From assembly GCA_052168235.1 (NCBI GenBank), contig JBQLZK010000006.1:32001-96000 (forward strand): a DNA stretch of 64,000 bases, written 5' to 3'. Made by a program: the position numbers and the translations under genes. The notes under the pieces were generated by a model, which saw only the letters and a list, made by a program, of their open reading frames with translations, did no database searches and was not told the origin of the DNA. Positions 1-5,493 of this stretch are shown piece after piece. This DNA is from Thainema sp. (lineage in GTDB: Bacteria; Cyanobacteriota; Cyanobacteriia; Phormidesmidales; Phormidesmidaceae). Positions within the stretch are counted from its first letter, which is position 1; each line of letters starts with the position of its first letter.

Positions 1-1
1 A

Positions 2-271
2 TTCCCGTGCGATCGCACCTGTAGTTCGCAGTTGTTCCACTTCTTCGGCGCGAATTTCGGTATCAGTGGACAGCAGTAAAACCTGATGGCTGGCTTGGGG
101 AAAGTATCGCTCGACCAGATGATTACGATGTTCGGAGTCGAGCCGTCCCAGGGGCGTGTCGATGGCGACGGGCAGTTGCCGACCGGAAGCGCTAGCTAAT
201 CCCCAAAGAAGTGCGATCGCAAGGATCTGTTTTTCGCCAGCGGAAAGCCGATGTTTGGGTGGCCATGCGCC
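2..271 (-). pseudogene. dndD: C-terminal fragment of DNA sulfur-modification ATPase DndD; 5' part missing; runs off the window end
   Basis: My translation of the minus strand gives PKHRLSAGEKQILAIALLWGLASASGRQLPVAIDTPLGRLDSEHRNHLVERYFPQASHQVLLLSTDTEI, the ABC signature/Walker B region typical of DndD. The frame is closed upstream by TAA at 272-274 and has no in-frame ATG. Confidence 0.85.
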
Positions 272-601
272 TTACCCTTTTGGCAGGTATTTGACCAAGG
301 CTTTCATAACTTCTCCGGGTTGAAATTGCAGGGGACGATCGGCGTTGGGGGCGGAGAGGAAGTCTGTCCATTCGAAGGTTTCGGCAAAGCCGAGCTGGTG
401 GAGGGTGTTGATGATGGTGGTAATGGATTGTTTGGAGCCGATGACGAGGATTTTGACGGGTTCGCGATCGCGTTTGGGGTAGGAGTAGAGTTTGAGAGAA
501 ACGGAAAGAGAGACGGTTTCTGAGGAGTCGGATGAGTTGGAGAGGAAGGATTGGGTTTGCATAGTTGTCGCCTTAAAGTGTGGCATCAATTTGGATGCCA
601 A
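272..601 (-). CDS. Small cyanobacterial hypothetical protein, divergent from an XRE regulator
   Basis: 109-aa ORF; the REPVKILVIGS...LHQLGFAE..EW motif recalls a cyanobacterial family; true start uncertain. Confidence 0.65.
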   Translation of the reverse strand: MASKLMPHFKATTMQTQSFLSNSSDSSETVSLSVSLKLYSYPKRDREPVKILVIGSKQSITTIINTLHQLGFAETFEWTDFLSAPNADRPLQFQPGEVMKALVKYLPKG

Positions 602-678: not shown

Positions 679-912
679 ATGGGAAAAGCAGGAGCAGCAC
701 TCAAGCAGGTACTTGAGCAATATGAAATCAGTCAATATAGTCTTGCTGCGGTTCTTGATGTAGAACGCAACAACGTCTATCGATGGGTCAACGAAAAGCG
801 TGATCCATCTGGTGAAAGAATCGTTGAAATTGTTAGAGCACTAAAGTCTATGAATTCTGAAGCAGCAGAAACATTTGTTTCTTTATATTTAGGAGATGAA
901 CTCTTAGACTAA
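679..912 (+). CDS. XRE-family helix-turn-helix regulator
   Basis: MGKAGAALKQVLEQYEISQYSLAAVLDVERNNVYRWVNEKRDP is an HTH_3 pattern; ATG at 679 follows GGAGG. Confidence 0.85.
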   Translation: MGKAGAALKQVLEQYEISQYSLAAVLDVERNNVYRWVNEKRDPSGERIVEIVRALKSMNSEAAETFVSLYLGDELLD

Positions 913-1250
913 AACCGCAATCTACCTGTAGCAAGCATTCGATAACCCATTGCCATTGATGCAAACGAAACGAAGAATTGCCATAAACTAGTTGGATTTA
1001 ATACGGCTCGACTGCTAGCGAAGATCAAAACGATGCTGACTCCCACAAATATCCAACCATAGCTTTTGAGACTCATGGGCAACGCAACTAGCCATACAGT
1101 TCCGAGCACTAAGAGCAAGATGGAGAGATCAGCAGCAATTCCACGCCAAAAATAAGGATAAACATTCGTAGTAAAGAATATGTTTCGACCCAAAAAATAA
1201 ATTCCAAGCAGAATCAATGCAAAACCAATCAGTTGAATAAAGAATCTCAT
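909..1250 (-). CDS. Small multi-pass membrane protein
   Basis: 113 aa with about four hydrophobic segments. Confidence 0.75.
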   Translation of the reverse strand: MRFFIQLIGFALILLGIYFLGRNIFFTTNVYPYFWRGIAADLSILLLVLGTVWLVALPMSLKSYGWIFVGVSIVLIFASSRAVLNPTSLWQFFVSFASMAMGYRMLATGRLRF

Positions 1251-1289
1251 AACGCCACTTAACTCAAATAACTATTTTGGATTGAGGAA

Positions 1290-2249
1290 TCAAGCGATTT
1301 CCCATCGTTCTCTATGCCAACTCAGCGCTTCTAAACTGGGTCTAAATTTATCCTCAGTAGGTAACTCAATTTGCTCACCTTTGAAATCCATCATTCCTCG
1401 GCTTTCTATTGCTATTTCTTCTGTAAATCGATCTCTTGGAATAACTATACGATAATCATTGCTAATTCCAAACCAACCATGATCAAAAGCCCAATGATGA
1501 TTTTTGCAAAGCGCTAAACCATTAATAAAGCGATCATCTCTGAATTCCGAAAACGGCTTAATGTGTGCTCCATCAACAATATTCTGAGCATCAGAGCTAA
1601 TGATTTTTAAACGGCAAAATGCACAACGTTGATCATAGAGAGAAACTACGATTCTTCGAAACGCACCATTCCTCACAACAATGTTTTCTTCATTCTTTAG
1701 ATCTTTGATGCTATATGTCGCACCTCCTTCTTTTAAAAGCCGATTTTTAACGATTTCAAATTCATCTACAAGTGCAAGTTGCTCAATTTCGGAAGTTTGC
1801 TCAGAAAACCAAGTATCAATTAAAACCTTTAGCAAAAATATTCTTTGTTCAGGATTTTGCAAAAGAAAGAATAGCTCTGAATCAAAATAGGCGTGTTGAA
1901 CTGTTTTTCTGACTGCTGTAACTCCTTTACGGCCTAACTTAGTAGCTGATGTAGCTTCGCTGTCTGGATCTAGGTAAAGATGCCAAAATTTATCACCTGT
2001 TAAATGAACAAAAGGAAGTGATATATCAGAACGATGATCAGTTGTTACTAAGCTACGCCAATATTTTAGGAAGGTTGAAATTAGTTCAGGTGATAAAGGA
2101 ATTCTGTTCTTATAGATTTTTCCTTGTTCAATCAACTCAAGAACTGAAATAAGCAAAATAGGTTTATGTGGAGCGCTTCCTCGCTCTCGATTTCGGTTTA
2201 CATTGAGATTTGCGAACTTTCTCGCGTAGTAGTGCAAATCTTTTTTCAT
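1290..2249 (-). CDS. SBD-HNH endonuclease, putative phosphorothioate-dependent restriction enzyme
   Basis: N-terminal APHKPILLISVL and LPFVHL..DKFWHL (SBD-like); C-terminal CAFC...DGAHIKP...NGLALCKNHHWAFD (HNH). Confidence 0.85.
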   Translation of the reverse strand: MKKDLHYYARKFANLNVNRNRERGSAPHKPILLISVLELIEQGKIYKNRIPLSPELISTFLKYWRSLVTTDHRSDISLPFVHLTGDKFWHLYLDPDSEATSATKLGRKGVTAVRKTVQHAYFDSELFFLLQNPEQRIFLLKVLIDTWFSEQTSEIEQLALVDEFEIVKNRLLKEGGATYSIKDLKNEENIVVRNGAFRRIVVSLYDQRCAFCRLKIISSDAQNIVDGAHIKPFSEFRDDRFINGLALCKNHHWAFDHGWFGISNDYRIVIPRDRFTEEIAIESRGMMDFKGEQIELPTEDKFRPSLEALSWHRERWEIA

Positions 2250-2267
2250 AAATGTAAACCAGACTAA

Positions 2268-2831
2268 CTATGCTTCATCAAGTTTTCTCATGTACGTGCT
2301 GTACATTTTCATAAAGTACCCCGGTGGCTCTTGAAAACTATCAGTCTGTGAAATTTGTTTAACTTGATCCAGTTTACCTGGAAACCATCGACCGACTAGA
2401 ACCGCCCGTAAACTATCACGCAAAGATTGTTCTTGTAAAAAATCAAACAAGTCCTCATCTAAGTAAGCATGGCTAATTGCACGTTTCACCTCTGCCAGAG
2501 TCTTTAACTTTATCTTTTTAGCTAAAACTTTCTCAAAACCTGGATTGGCGTATAAGTGCCAAAATTTACCGCTTTTCATATGGAAAAACGGTCGTGAGAT
2601 ATCGGGATAATGACTAGCCGATCCTAAATAGCTCCAATACTTTAAAAACGTTCGATTGATTTGTCTAGATAATTCAATTCGATTCTCATGAATTACTTCG
2701 CGTTCAAAGAGTTCAATAACTGAAAGCAATAGAATTGGCTTGTGAGGCGCAACGCCATGAGCACGATCTACCCGTATCCTCTCAAATTTCTTTGAGTAAT
2801 ATGCAAGAAGCTTAATTCTTTCTAAATCCAC
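2268..2831 (-). CDS. Stand-alone SBD-like protein with no nuclease domain
   Basis: APHKPILLLSVIEL, TFLKYW, RPFFHMKSGKFWHL and HAYLDEDLF parallel the N-terminus of the downstream gene; no HNH motif; GTG start. Confidence 0.8.
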   Translation of the reverse strand: MDLERIKLLAYYSKKFERIRVDRAHGVAPHKPILLLSVIELFEREVIHENRIELSRQINRTFLKYWSYLGSASHYPDISRPFFHMKSGKFWHLYANPGFEKVLAKKIKLKTLAEVKRAISHAYLDEDLFDFLQEQSLRDSLRAVLVGRWFPGKLDQVKQISQTDSFQEPPGYFMKMYSTYMRKLDEA

Positions 2832-2895
2832 TTGCTTTAAGTTTAGTGGCTTGTACTACAGAATGAATGATAGACGAAAGATTTCTCTCATGAGA

Positions 2896-3153
2896 CTAAT
2901 CTGATCTTTTATCATCTAGCATCTCTCTCTTAATTTCTTGTATCAAGTCTATAATCTGTTGCCGAGTTTCGTATCCTTCTGCAACTAAAGACTCCTTTAA
3001 TTCTTGTTGAATCTGTTCTACAGAACTCAGCGGTTCACGCAAAGCTGTTTTTCCTAAATACCCAAGCCTCAACATATCTTCTAGATATACTACGAACTCT
3101 CGATCTCCAGAGACTACTTTAATATTGCAGAGATAAAGCCCATTATCATTCAT
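2896..3153 (-). pseudogene. Chimeric ORF: HepT/DUF86-like N-terminal stub joined to unrelated sequence
   Basis: Start overlaps the MNT stop (ATGA); MNDNGLYLCNIK resembles HepT N-termini; no R-x4-H HEPN motif follows. Confidence 0.5.
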
Positions 3154-3476
3154 AGCGGTATCGCATCCTGCATCACCCGATCCTTAATCCGCTCGTGCAG
3201 AGCCGATGGAGTCGCCACATCCACCGATCTCCCCAATAAATCCTCCAGATCCTGTATTAGGCCAATGTGGTCAAGCAAACTGCGCCCCGGCTCCAGGTCT
3301 ACTAACAAATCAATATCACTCTGCTCATTCGCTTCTCCTCGCACTACCGAGCCAAATACCCGAATATTAGATGCTCCATGTTGTGCGGCAATAGAGACAA
3401 GATCTGCCTTTTGCGCTCTTAATCGAGCCAGTAGATCATTCACCCTAGAAGCCTCTAGATTGGAGTCTTGCATCAC
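3150..3476 (-). CDS. mntA: Minimal nucleotidyltransferase (MntA-type antitoxin)
   Basis: FGSVVRGEANEQSDIDLLVD gives GS-x10-DxD; C-terminal LEDLLGRSVDV. Confidence 0.9.
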   Translation of the reverse strand: MMQDSNLEASRVNDLLARLRAQKADLVSIAAQHGASNIRVFGSVVRGEANEQSDIDLLVDLEPGRSLLDHIGLIQDLEDLLGRSVDVATPSALHERIKDRVMQDAIPL

Positions 3477-3506
3477 ATCACCTCCAAAACCTCAGTCCAC
3501 TCAAAC

Positions 3507-3569
3507 TCATTTACACTCTGCCGCACCAGCTTGATCAACGAAACCTACTTCTTTTACAAATGTTGCCAA
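3507..3569 (-). pseudogene. Possible stub of a PemK/MazF-like toxin
   Basis: TTG start with GAGGAGG upstream overlaps the DUF2281 3' end; (M)ATFVK resembles the start of the usual partner toxin, then the frame diverges and stops after 20 aa. Confidence 0.4.
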
Positions 3570-3748
3570 GCCTCCTCCTCGTCAGGTAACAACCAGTCCT
3601 TATTTAAGGCAGACTCACTCAATAAAGCAGTTTCAAACTTCTCCTGTGCCTGAGTCATATTCAAAAACTGAATAAACGACAATACTGTTGTCAAAACATC
3701 TTCAGGAGCTTTTTCTAACTCCTGCAAAATTAAATCTTTAATCGTCAC
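3554..3748 (-). CDS. DUF2281-like putative antitoxin
   Basis: ILQELEKAPEDVLTTVLSFIQFL...ALLSESALNKDWLLPDEEEAWQHL. Confidence 0.8.
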   Translation of the reverse strand: MTIKDLILQELEKAPEDVLTTVLSFIQFLNMTQAQEKFETALLSESALNKDWLLPDEEEAWQHL

Positions 3749-3759
3749 TTCTCAACTTC

Positions 3760-5493
3760 CTACATCGCAGTATAAGTATTCACCCGATACCCTAGTTCAC
3801 TCCCTAACAGCCGCGTCACTGCTTCTAGCTGCCGCAACGTTTCTTGCGTGACCCCATCCTCAACTGATCCATCACCGCAGTAAAACAGCGTATGATCCGT
3901 ATTCAACCGATTTTTCATCAAAGCTCGTAAGGCTGGAATCTTATTCTCCGCAGTACCAATCAGCCGAGCCCGCTTAGAAAGCAACAAGGTCAGGTTCTCA
4001 TTATCTTCATCATCACCACCAATTGCGATCGCACGGCCAATCTTGACTGATAAATCGGCATACTCCAGCACCTCGTCATCCGTCAGTTCCACCAAAATCG
4101 GGTAGTAGCGATAATGCACCAGCGCCCCCTGTTCAATGGCATTCCGTAGGGTAAACTCCGGCTCCAGTACCTCGCCAAAATAGTCAAACAGCGCCTGGGT
4201 GCCCCGATCATCAAAATACCGCTCCGGTGTCGCCGACAGTCCTAATCTCAACCCCACTGTCTTTGGCAAACTGGCCGCCAATCGTTGCGCTCCTAAGTTA
4301 TGCGCCTCATCCCCAATCAACAGCGTCTTCTTGGGAAACGAACCAAGCTGCGACTGAAAGCCCTGACTAGTCAGCGTCGCATTCGTTGTAATCACCGTGA
4401 CAAACGGCTGCAGTTCTAATTTCAGGTTAAGCAACTGATTCGACAGATTGCTCTGCCACTGCTTCAAACTCTCATAGGCCAAAATTGGCTCTAGCCCAAA
4501 CTTCCGGCACTCCCGATCCCACTGCTGCACTAAGTGACGGTAAGGACACACTACAATCAGCGCTTGCAGCTCAATTTTCTCGTATAGCTCTGCGGCAACA
4601 GCCAAAGCGGTAATTGTCTTTCCGCTTCCTGTTGCCATTTTCAGTGTGCCGCGCCCATTATTTGCAAACCAATTCTCCACCGCCTGCTTTTGGTAATCCC
4701 GTAGATTGAGCCAGAATGGTTTAATTGGGATTCCTTGAAGTTTGGTGGCTACTTCATCAGGAAAATCTAATTCATAATCTCCTTTAGTACTAGCAGCATA
4801 AGGCTCTCGCGTCGGTGGTTTATCAGGGCAGTACTTTTGGATCAGAGATCGCGTTACCGCCTCCGGAAACGGCATCACATCAACCTTGGGCGTGCGATTC
4901 TGCCACAACTCCTCAAATGCCTCTGCTCGCATACGTGCCCATTCGTCAAGTCCGGGTTGCCAAGACGCACAAACCTCTAATACCTCAAAATTATGCTGTA
5001 AGCCATTTTCACTTTCATTGGCTGAGCCGTTGAAAGTTACTAAATTCCCCTCATCATCAGCAAAGATACCCAGCTTTTCGTGATAGATGCCCCGTAACGC
5101 TTCAGGTACAGCTAACTTGATCTCTAGATTTCCCCGCGCCAGCAACCAAGTCAGAGCTGCGAATCGCTGTTTCACAAAATCGGGCATATCCTCTTGATCA
5201 AAGCTTCTCAGCAATGCCCGATTAATCACCTCATCTCGCTGCTGGAGACCCTGCTGAATTGCTTCCACATCCGCTTCAGACAATTGTGGTGATGTCACCA
5301 ACCGCATCCGCCCACCCGACTGAATAAATGCTGTTAATCCCCTCGCCACCAGTGCCAGCACCGAGCTCGAAAAGTATCCCACCGCACGGTTGTAGACGGT
5401 TGCCTGCTTCAAACAAGGAATATAGAAATCCTCAACTAAGTTGGACTCACTACTGCGATATCTCTTGCGAAGGTTTAGCGCTTTCAGATTCAA
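3760..5493 (-). pseudogene. PLD-nuclease/SF2 DEAH helicase of the dnd-associated restriction enzyme type, C-terminally truncated
   Basis: HEKLGIFAD...NGSANES (PLD), MATGSGKT, DEAH and LSATPER are present; the ORF ends at GYRVNTYTAM before helicase motifs V and VI. Confidence 0.8.

Follow-up and report, generated by a model that had tools for sequence, protein, structure and literature searches.

A nuclease-free sulfur-binding-domain gene beside an SBD-HNH nuclease gene in cyanobacterial DNA-sulfur-modification islands: a candidate split reader of phosphorothioate DNA

The stretch of Thainema sp. DNA analysed here (64,000 nucleotides; contig JBQLZK010000006.1, positions 32,001 to 96,000; hereafter the window) carries two adjoining genes, which are named S and P throughout. 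S is a short gene that encodes a nuclease-free, SBD-only protein (SBD, for sulfur-binding domain), and P encodes an SBD-HNH nuclease. The S-P pair is conserved in dozens of species within DNA-sulfur-modification islands. From its sequence, the pair appears to be a split reader/nuclease form of the phosphorothioate (PT)-dependent SBD-HNH enzymes, placed in islands of Dnd and Pbe genes, and we see about an even chance that S acts as a dedicated PT-reader subunit for the nuclease P, with PT binding and S-P contact as predicted properties.

To our knowledge, SBD-HNH enzymes are the only known readers of sulfur in the DNA backbone. They are used in PT mapping, in the capture of PT oligonucleotides and in RNA editing. 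Natural and conserved, S has no nuclease but an invariant pocket, a cationic lid and a tail of its own, which makes it a candidate PT-binding reagent as it stands, and the S-P pair gives a first hint of PT reading and cutting being divided between two proteins. Because the pair sits systematically inside PT-writing islands, an arrangement that is exceptional in the literature, it also offers a tractable case of a PT reader-nuclease that coexists with self PT.

The S-P gene pair and its shared domain

Both genes lie on the minus strand, which places S upstream of P (Table 1). The N-terminal domains of their products are 44% identical over 163 aa (BLASTP, E 6e-45), a similarity far beyond chance, and both contain the motifs APHKPILL, TFLKYW, PF.H...KFWHL and HAY.D..LF. 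The HNH domain is limited to P (Pfam HNH_2, E 6.7e-10, residues 209-262), and S has none. The initial annotation of this DNA had described two co-oriented genes 18 bp apart with a paralogous N-terminal domain and an HNH nuclease in only one of them, and this was confirmed by the open reading frames (ORFs), BLASTP and Pfam. Its account of the gene order holds for the pair as such and is corrected in that both genes are on the minus strand, with the SBD-only gene upstream. Stop-codon read-through fusing S to P was considered, the spacer in the window being 18 nt long, in frame and free of stop codons, and was rejected since spacer lengths elsewhere are not consistently multiples of three. The GC content is 0.36-0.39 at positions 1001-3000 of the window (a membrane-protein gene, P and S) versus 0.44-0.55 in the flanking 500-base windows.

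The shared domain of S and P is a true SBD by sequence similarity and, for S, by its modelled fold. In a phmmer search of the PDB, 8H0L (the SBD of the Hga protein, SBDHga, with phosphorothioated DNA) matched P with an E-value of 4.5e-21 (residues 6-147) and S with 6.9e-21 (residues 8-145). An AlphaFold2 model of S built from 61 family sequences had a mean pLDDT of 89.7. In Foldseek comparisons with the PDB, this model aligned with 8h0l_A at a TMt of 0.87 and an rmsd of 2.2 A over 146 columns, and its top 11 matches were all SBDs (8H0L, 5ZMN, 7CCD, 5ZMM, 5ZMO, 7CCJ and 7CC9). A search of the local Pfam copy assigned neither S nor P to an SBD family, even at E <= 1; the Pfam family PF26340 (ScoMcrA-like SBD) is precomputed on many S-family clusters. 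The domain had been called an SBD at the outset, with a profile and structure comparison as the suggested check; the call is borne out by the 8H0L matches, by the superposition of the S model on 8H0L, 5ZMO/5ZMN and 7CCD, and by the pocket residues, and the predicted fold of S is that of an SBD.

Conservation of the pair in cyanobacteria

A phylum sample of 401 genomes was searched (G numbers denote genomes and L numbers loci). An SBD was present in 56 of them, and S adjoined an SBD-HNH gene in three, namely the window genome (G000), G264 and G017. In a protein collection, 405 proteins were related to S at E <= 1e-10. The best 120 of these 405 are all 150-231 aa long and 56-96% identical to S; the named ones come from filamentous cyanobacteria (90%-identity clusters), and some carry PF26340 or the UniRef name 'ScoMcrA-like DNA su...'. 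Scans of species-representative genomes yielded 23 and then 80 loci. Adding the window, G264 and G017 to the 80 gave a set of 83 loci, which were scored by ORF calling and phmmer.

S is present in 55 of the 83 loci, and the other 28 have a solitary SBD-HNH gene. The order S then SBD-HNH on the same strand was found in 42 of the 55; 39 of these tandem loci were scored by script, and three were counted in addition: in L090 and L100 the ORF call of the nuclease extends into S, and in L113 the two genes are 231 nt apart. The rest comprise one pair split by an insertion sequence (IS; G017), three convergent arrangements, six contigs that end right after S and three broken S genes. When intact S was defined as 160 aa or more, 44 intact S genes had downstream DNA in view, and each of them had an SBD-HNH neighbour (40 tandem, 1 IS-split and 3 convergent), and in 3/3 loci with S but no adjoining nuclease S was broken. 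The gap between the ORF calls of S and the nuclease in the 39 scored tandem loci ranges from -56 to +108 nt and lies between -4 and +23 in 24 of them; the larger overlaps stem from over-extended start calls. These counts answer the survey of pair conservation that the initial annotation had called for, and they speak for the pair. Cultured strains that carry it include Leptolyngbya sp. JSC-1, Leptolyngbya sp. PCC 7375 and Halomicronema hongdechloris C2206.

A phage collection gave no match, and 15 plasmid records gave only SBD-HNH-type matches of at most 45% identity, none of them S-like. The mobilizable plasmid pCC7120delta of Nostoc sp. PCC 7120 (L139, 9007-9975) carries a solitary SBD-HNH gene annotated as 'HNH endonuclease'; no dnd genes are annotated near it, so this is not a dnd context. 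At the G017 locus (L035, 9383-10866), an IS-type transposase gene lies in the 5' end of the SBD-HNH gene, within the part for the N-terminus, and the upstream S (181 aa) is intact. No DndD was found in the complete genome of G017 (E 1.1e-4).

The sulfur pocket in S and in P

The closest solved relative of both S and P is SBDHga of Hahella ganghwensis (8H0L), a sequence-promiscuous domain whose sulfur cavity is reported to consist of H25, K26, L75, P76 and H79 (PMC10602919). H25, K26, P76 and H79 are matched in both proteins; P agrees at all five cavity positions (H, K, L, P, H), and S at four of five, with Arg at the lid. In ScoMcrA, the pocket residues given in PMC6224610 are H116, R117, Y164 and P165; the same source states that Pro and His are the most conserved, that Arg is Lys in most homologues and that the R117Q exchange weakens PT binding. 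Hga differs from S in that its SBD is fused to a PD-(D/E)XK nuclease (PMC10602919), whereas S has no nuclease.

Among 61 S-family representatives, H30, K31, P32, P81, F90, W91, H92, K108 and L109 are invariant, and conservation at R80 and H84 is 90% or higher. The pocket H-K and Pro are present in all 47 intact S proteins of the 83-locus set. At the lid, 36 of them have Arg and 7 have Lys (R or K in 43/47), where SBDHga has Leu; S has in addition a conserved tail. The S sequence departs from the SBD-HNH linker after about residue 168, and the AlphaFold2 model predicts a helix at residues 171-186 (pLDDT 74-79). The short protein had been described as intact with a C-terminal tail of its own, and the tail (about residues 161-187) indeed proved to be conserved family-wide. 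S had no PADLOC match; it scored 30 bits against NCBIfam NF045808 ('phosphorothioated DNA-binding restriction endonuclease'; cut-off 180) and, as it has no HNH, is not a member of that family.

P has the SBD plus HNH layout with intact predicted catalytic and zinc residues. The HNH columns that are invariant in 32 SBD-HNH proteins are, in P numbering, C209, C212, D226, G227, H229, N243, C248, K249, N250 and H251. P also aligned with the HNH region of TagI in the PDB search, and in PADLOC it matched generic HNH models only (PDLC04132, E 5.6e-19).

The pockets of the two partners have fared differently. In the 83-locus set, the 44 partner nucleases have the pocket dyad H-K in 27 cases, H-Q in 1 and Y-Q in 13, with 3 incomplete. 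Of the 41 partner nucleases that could be scored, 14 thus have Gln in place of the pocket Lys, as against 0/47 S proteins. In solitary SBD-HNH proteins, Lys is replaced in 0/27 scorable cases of this set and in 1/27 of the phylum-sample set. The HNH motif is invariant in the partners that have lost the pocket Lys, and the Y-Q state is kept in 13 species-level genomes; the pairs of G264 and Egbenema are examples. The nuclease pocket has lost its cationic residue only where S adjoins, and S never has, which is a signal of subfunctionalisation.

The Dnd/Pbe islands around the pair

In most related loci, the pair lies between Pbe genes (PbeA/CxC) and Dnd genes (DndC/D/E), and at least one dnd or pbe gene flanks S in 45 of the 55 S-bearing loci. 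Hosts of the pair therefore probably write PT themselves. The initial annotation had taken the pair for a free-standing type IV module, a view that does not hold, as in most related loci the pair is part of a cyanobacterial Dnd/Pbe island. In the phylum sample, DndD scored above its cut-off in 51/56 SBD-positive versus 64/345 SBD-negative genomes; this is a hand count over kin that are not independent, given as a description and not as a test. The SBD-HNH gene is often 3-6 kb from DndD and the CxC ATPase gene on the same contig (e.g. G032, G020, G260 and G098).

An intact island is found in G264, a genome of the same family as the window genome. On one strand it encodes PbeA (706 aa), a CxC-type ABC ATPase (690 aa), dnd_assoc_4 (153 aa), S (190 aa) and the SBD-HNH nuclease (325 aa). 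These are followed by an HTH gene in convergent orientation, by the genes for a 104-aa protein, DndD (656 aa, 614 bits) and DndE, and by divergent DndC-like and TIGR04096 genes. Compared with this layout, the island in the window is eroded: its PbeA stops at residue 577, other genes stand in place of those for the CxC ATPase and dnd_assoc_4, and DndD is a fragment. S and P are intact in the window despite this erosion. To the left of the window, the same locus (L004) holds DndE, a PD-(D/E)XK gene, two Uma2-family genes, a short DndC-like gene and a TIGR04096 gene, the last of the 'phosphorothioation-associated methyltransferase' family; the DndC-like protein scored 145 bits against the DndC cut-off of 290. 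Full-length DndD was not found in the window genome, which is 99.99% complete. This genome may still write PT by means of its CxC ATPase, DndE and DndC-like genes. A second set of PbeA (725 aa), CxC ATPase (690 aa) and dnd_assoc_4 genes, apparently intact, lies on its contig 3 (L062, 6512-18791), with neither an SBD gene nor DndD beside it.

Erosion is not confined to the window. PbeA is present only as fragments (<650 aa) in 22 of the 33 S-bearing loci with a PbeA match versus 1/8 solitary loci, although frameshifts in metagenome-assembled genomes (MAGs) may inflate these numbers. The idea that S depends on the Pbe module was discarded, as S is intact where the Pbe genes are fragments. The eroded PbeA in L063-L135 is often an 80-160-aa N-terminal stub directly upstream of S. 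The genes for the DndC-like protein (about 400 aa) and TIGR04096 stay together beside S, P and the HTH gene (L004, 11268-14818; L071, L075 and L112), even where the locus has no DndD or DndE, and may form a modification unit of their own.

Origin and selection

In an IQ-TREE phylogeny of 73 SBD rows, all 23 S sequences fell into one clade (SH-aLRT 100, stem 0.6), sister with a support of 89 to a group of 15 partner SBDs and one solitary SBD-HNH. The S and partner sub-clades hold the same loci and mirror each other, and the S clade occurs in several cyanobacterial families. In a FastTree phylogeny of 120 SBDs, S did not form one clean clade; it required two changes, with 40/47 in one starred clade, and a single origin is still possible. 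The nearest non-S relatives of S are full-length SBD-HNH proteins encoded in the same slot between dnd_assoc_4 and the HTH gene, e.g. in Pseudanabaena L101-L110 (52-54% identity), so that tandem duplication followed by loss of the upstream HNH is the simplest history. These relationships show a solitary SBD-HNH gene between the Pbe genes (PbeA, CxC ABC ATPase and dnd_assoc_4) and HTH/DndC-D-E to be the apparent ancestral state. Judging from the tree, the island SBD-HNH gene would have been duplicated in tandem in Leptolyngbya-like cyanobacteria, and the upstream copy would have lost its HNH and gained a tail to become S.

Nei-Gojobori estimates indicated purifying selection. Between S of the window and its 92%-identical relative in L036, dN/dS was 0.082 (7 non-synonymous and 20 synonymous differences); in five closer pairs it was 0.07-0.25 for S. 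For P, the values were 0.05-0.10. A 6.1-kb stretch is colinear between the window and L036, with 92% nucleotide identity, and the eroded state is common to both. S and P have therefore remained under selection since the island eroded.

Comparison with known systems

P resembles the SBD-HNH type IV PT-dependent enzymes (SprMcrA, EcoWI, NF045808) in its N-terminal SBD, its HNH, the absence of an SRA domain and its intact pocket and HNH residues. It differs from them in its sub-threshold NF045808 score (113 bits, cut-off 180), in the separate nuclease-free SBD paralogue encoded 18 bp upstream, and in its position inside a Dnd/Pbe island, contrary to the expected avoidance of dnd clusters: according to PMC7461809, PT-dependent SBD-HNH enzymes are rarely (<3.6%) near dnd clusters. 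The same source describes the EcoWI-type enzymes as dimers.

A survey from the Aravind laboratory (PMC10853773) reports nucleases of the type wHTH(SBD)+SAD(SRA)+HNH in the Dnd loci of 698 taxa and proposes them as an alternative restriction component. These nucleases and ScoMcrA likewise place an SBD-bearing HNH nuclease beside Dnd genes; the SAD/SRA domain is absent here. The main-text passages of that survey, supplementary data aside, mention no free-standing SBD partner gene. It also redefines PbeA-D as an HKD-helicase, a small disordered protein, a CxC ATPase and a DndE cognate. S and P correspond to none of these, S being without a PADLOC match and P matching HNH models only, and the pair persists without Pbe genes. 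For SspE and DndI, control of a nuclease or nickase through the sensing of PT in the host's DNA has been reported (PMC9646914, PMC11662687). SspE, DndI, DndFGH and PbeABCD are also encoded beside PT-writing genes and are unrelated in sequence to S and P. In a full-text literature search, no paper turned up that describes an SBD-only plus SBD-HNH pair, in agreement with the initial annotation, which had known of none.

Proposed role of the pair and alternative explanations

In the reading that we favour, with an even chance of being right, S and P would be made from one transcript, and S would bind the Rp-sulfur of PT-DNA through its intact H-K/R-P-H pocket. As the PT-sensing subunit, it would recruit P to PT-marked DNA or gate its activity, probably through the conserved tail. 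The SBD of P would serve as a second reader, degenerate in about a third of the pairs. The pair could attack foreign PT-DNA or use the PT of the host as a self mark, and either is a candidate role.

Several observations weigh against this proposal. In three loci, S faces a very divergent, convergent SBD-HNH gene, which fits a looser relationship. Solitary SBD-HNH genes occupy the same island slot without S (e.g. L101-L110), so that the nuclease is not generally dependent on S. No SBD-SBD-HNH fusion was found, 9/9 longer matches being single-SBD proteins of 330-346 aa, although such a blank is weak evidence. The score of P against NF045808, at 113.2 bits, is below the cut-off of 180. Finally, the loss of the H-K dyad amounts to only two changes on the tree, that is, one or two events and not 13 independent ones.

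It is possible, although unlikely, that the pair reads the host's own PT marks as a split reader/effector enzyme. It would then be a compact means of telling self from non-self and would stand in for the Pbe restriction module. Sensing would fall to S, and the HNH protein would act as the effector, its own pocket being free to degenerate. Such a role would explain the repeated erosion of PbeA, CxC and dnd_assoc_4 in S-bearing islands, and would make a PT-reading nuclease tolerable in a PT-writing host.

Another possibility is that S is an antitoxin-like protective cap, which covers PT sites of the host or binds P, so that P would cut only uncapped incoming PT-DNA. The location of the pair among PT-writing genes is in keeping with this, and the presence of DndD in 51/56 SBD-positive genomes implies that a PT-reading nuclease needs some self-protection. 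S is also upstream of the nuclease, like most antitoxins, and with its intact pocket and cationic lid (R/K in 43/47) it could bind tightly. However, L101, L104, L105, L109 and L124 combine a solitary H-K SBD-HNH with full DndD and have no S, so a cap is not generally needed; S is intact in 13/13 pairs whose nuclease lacks H-K, where a cap would be superfluous; its dN/dS is 0.08 in the lineage of the window, where DndD is a fragment; and the pair occurs in genomes without DndD above the cut-off (G017, G403, G404 and G405, the completeness of the MAGs not being established). For these four reasons, namely solitary intact-pocket nucleases that coexist with full DndD, retention of S beside a degenerate nuclease pocket, selection on S beside a DndD fragment and pair genomes without above-cut-off DndD, the PT-reader subunit is preferred to the cap, which we hold to be improbable. 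Of the three roles that the initial annotation had suggested for S, the cap, with S intact beside Lys-less nucleases and fragmentary DndD, is now the least favoured.

S could instead be an independent reader of PT marks of the wHTH type, which would regulate or recruit other parts of the island (the Dnd writer genes, Pbe or the HTH regulator) or act on gene expression, and would be linked to P only by descent and position. PMC10853773 assigns the SBD to the winged-HTH fold, S is located at the junction of the Pbe and Dnd modules, and the three convergent loci have kept S with the co-directional partner replaced by the divergent nuclease. Against this, S has been retained in loci that lack PbeA, CxC and dnd_assoc_4 or have eroded forms of them (the window, L063, L065 and others), and also in loci without DndD/E (L071 and L112). 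No intact S (0/44) is without an adjoining SBD-HNH gene, and the very short or overlapping spacers suggest co-translation with P. We consider an independent reader quite improbable.

A further alternative, which we rate as very improbable, is that the domain no longer reads PT and that S and P bind unmodified DNA, or a different mark for which the island's DndC-like and TIGR04096 methyltransferase-like genes are responsible; in that case, P would be an ordinary restriction nuclease and S an accessory protein that binds DNA. The sub-threshold scores of P against NF045808 and of the island DndC-like protein against DndC (145 versus 290 bits) could be read in this way, and so could the figure in PMC7461809 that <3.6% of SBD-HNH genes are near dnd clusters, together with the suggestion of that paper that such cases may lack PT dependence. 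The SBDHga cavity is matched, however, at 5/5 positions in P and 4/5 in S (Arg lid), H, K and P do not vary within the S family, and the similarity to a PT-bound crystal structure is strong (E about 5e-21).

That S is a decaying duplicate, a truncated and functionless remnant of a second SBD-HNH gene, is extremely improbable: it did arise by duplication and HNH loss, and it is broken in L097, L099, L114 and L135, but the length (150-231 aa) and identity (56-96%) of the best 120 of its 405 relatives, its single old clade across several cyanobacterial families, a dN/dS of 0.07-0.25, the invariant pocket and the conserved tail refute a decayed local duplicate as far as sequence can. The initial annotation had named an unconserved, decayed short gene as the outcome that would undo its proposal; purifying selection and conservation of the pocket and tail were found instead.

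Other genes of the island in the window

The features of the pair and of the surrounding island are given in Table 1.

Table 1. Positions of the S-P pair, its domains and the neighbouring island genes in the window
Feature	Position	Strand	Description
S	2268..2831	-	187 aa, GTG start; nuclease-free sulfur-binding-domain protein
S pocket	H30 2742-2744, K31 2739-2741, R80 2592-2594, P81 2589-2591, H84 2580-2582	-	from alignment to SBDHga
S C-terminal tail	2271..2351 (aa 161-187)	-	conserved I160, D164, P169, P170, Y172
S/P spacer	2250..2267	-	18 bp; no terminator-like site between S and P
P	1290..2249	-	319 aa, ATG start; SBD-HNH nuclease
P SBD	1755-2249 (aa 1-165)	-	pocket H28, K29, L78, P79, H82
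HNH core of P	1464..1625 (aa 209-262)	-	Pfam HNH_2, E 6.7e-10
DndD C-terminal fragment	1..262 (G000:C6:31942-32262)	-	matches DndD residues ~550-656 only; 110-aa open frame extending past the left end of the window
p104	272..601	-	small island protein between HTH gene and DndD; tblastn 51-69% identity; no Pfam match
Xre-type HTH gene	682..912	+	convergent; conserved 76-aa core; Pfam HTH_3; dN/dS 0.03 vs L036
Predicted membrane protein, 113 aa	909..1250	-	between HTH gene and P; no family match; dN/dS 0.03 vs L036
85-aa ORF	within 2896..3748	-	overlaps MntA-like gene
MntA-like nucleotidyltransferase	3150-3476	-	PADLOC PDC-S09, E 5.7e-38
DUF2281-like ORF	3554-3748	-	between MntA-like gene and PbeA
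PbeA (PLD/HKD nuclease + SF2 helicase)	3760..5493	-	truncated, 577 of ~706 aa

The truncated PbeA covers positions 1-569 of the 682 of the PADLOC PbeA profile (E 7e-197) and 3-321 of the 451 of TIGR04095, and shares 58% identity with residues 1-577 of PbeA from G264 (706 aa). The three genes at 2896-3748 hold the slot of the CxC ATPase and dnd_assoc_4 genes and resemble inserted toxin-antitoxin-type cassettes. On the other side of the pair, the HTH gene is present in 32/55 S-bearing and 11/28 solitary loci, and p104 in 12/55 S-bearing loci. The gene for the 113-aa membrane protein is a lineage-specific insertion outside the conserved module, as it is absent from this position in G264, where the HTH gene is 4 nt from the end of P. 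The DndD remnant adjoins the PD-(D/E)XK gene that replaces the rest of DndD, and its dN/dS versus L036 is 0.08 (4.5 non-synonymous and 16.5 synonymous differences), a value unexpected for a dead fragment.

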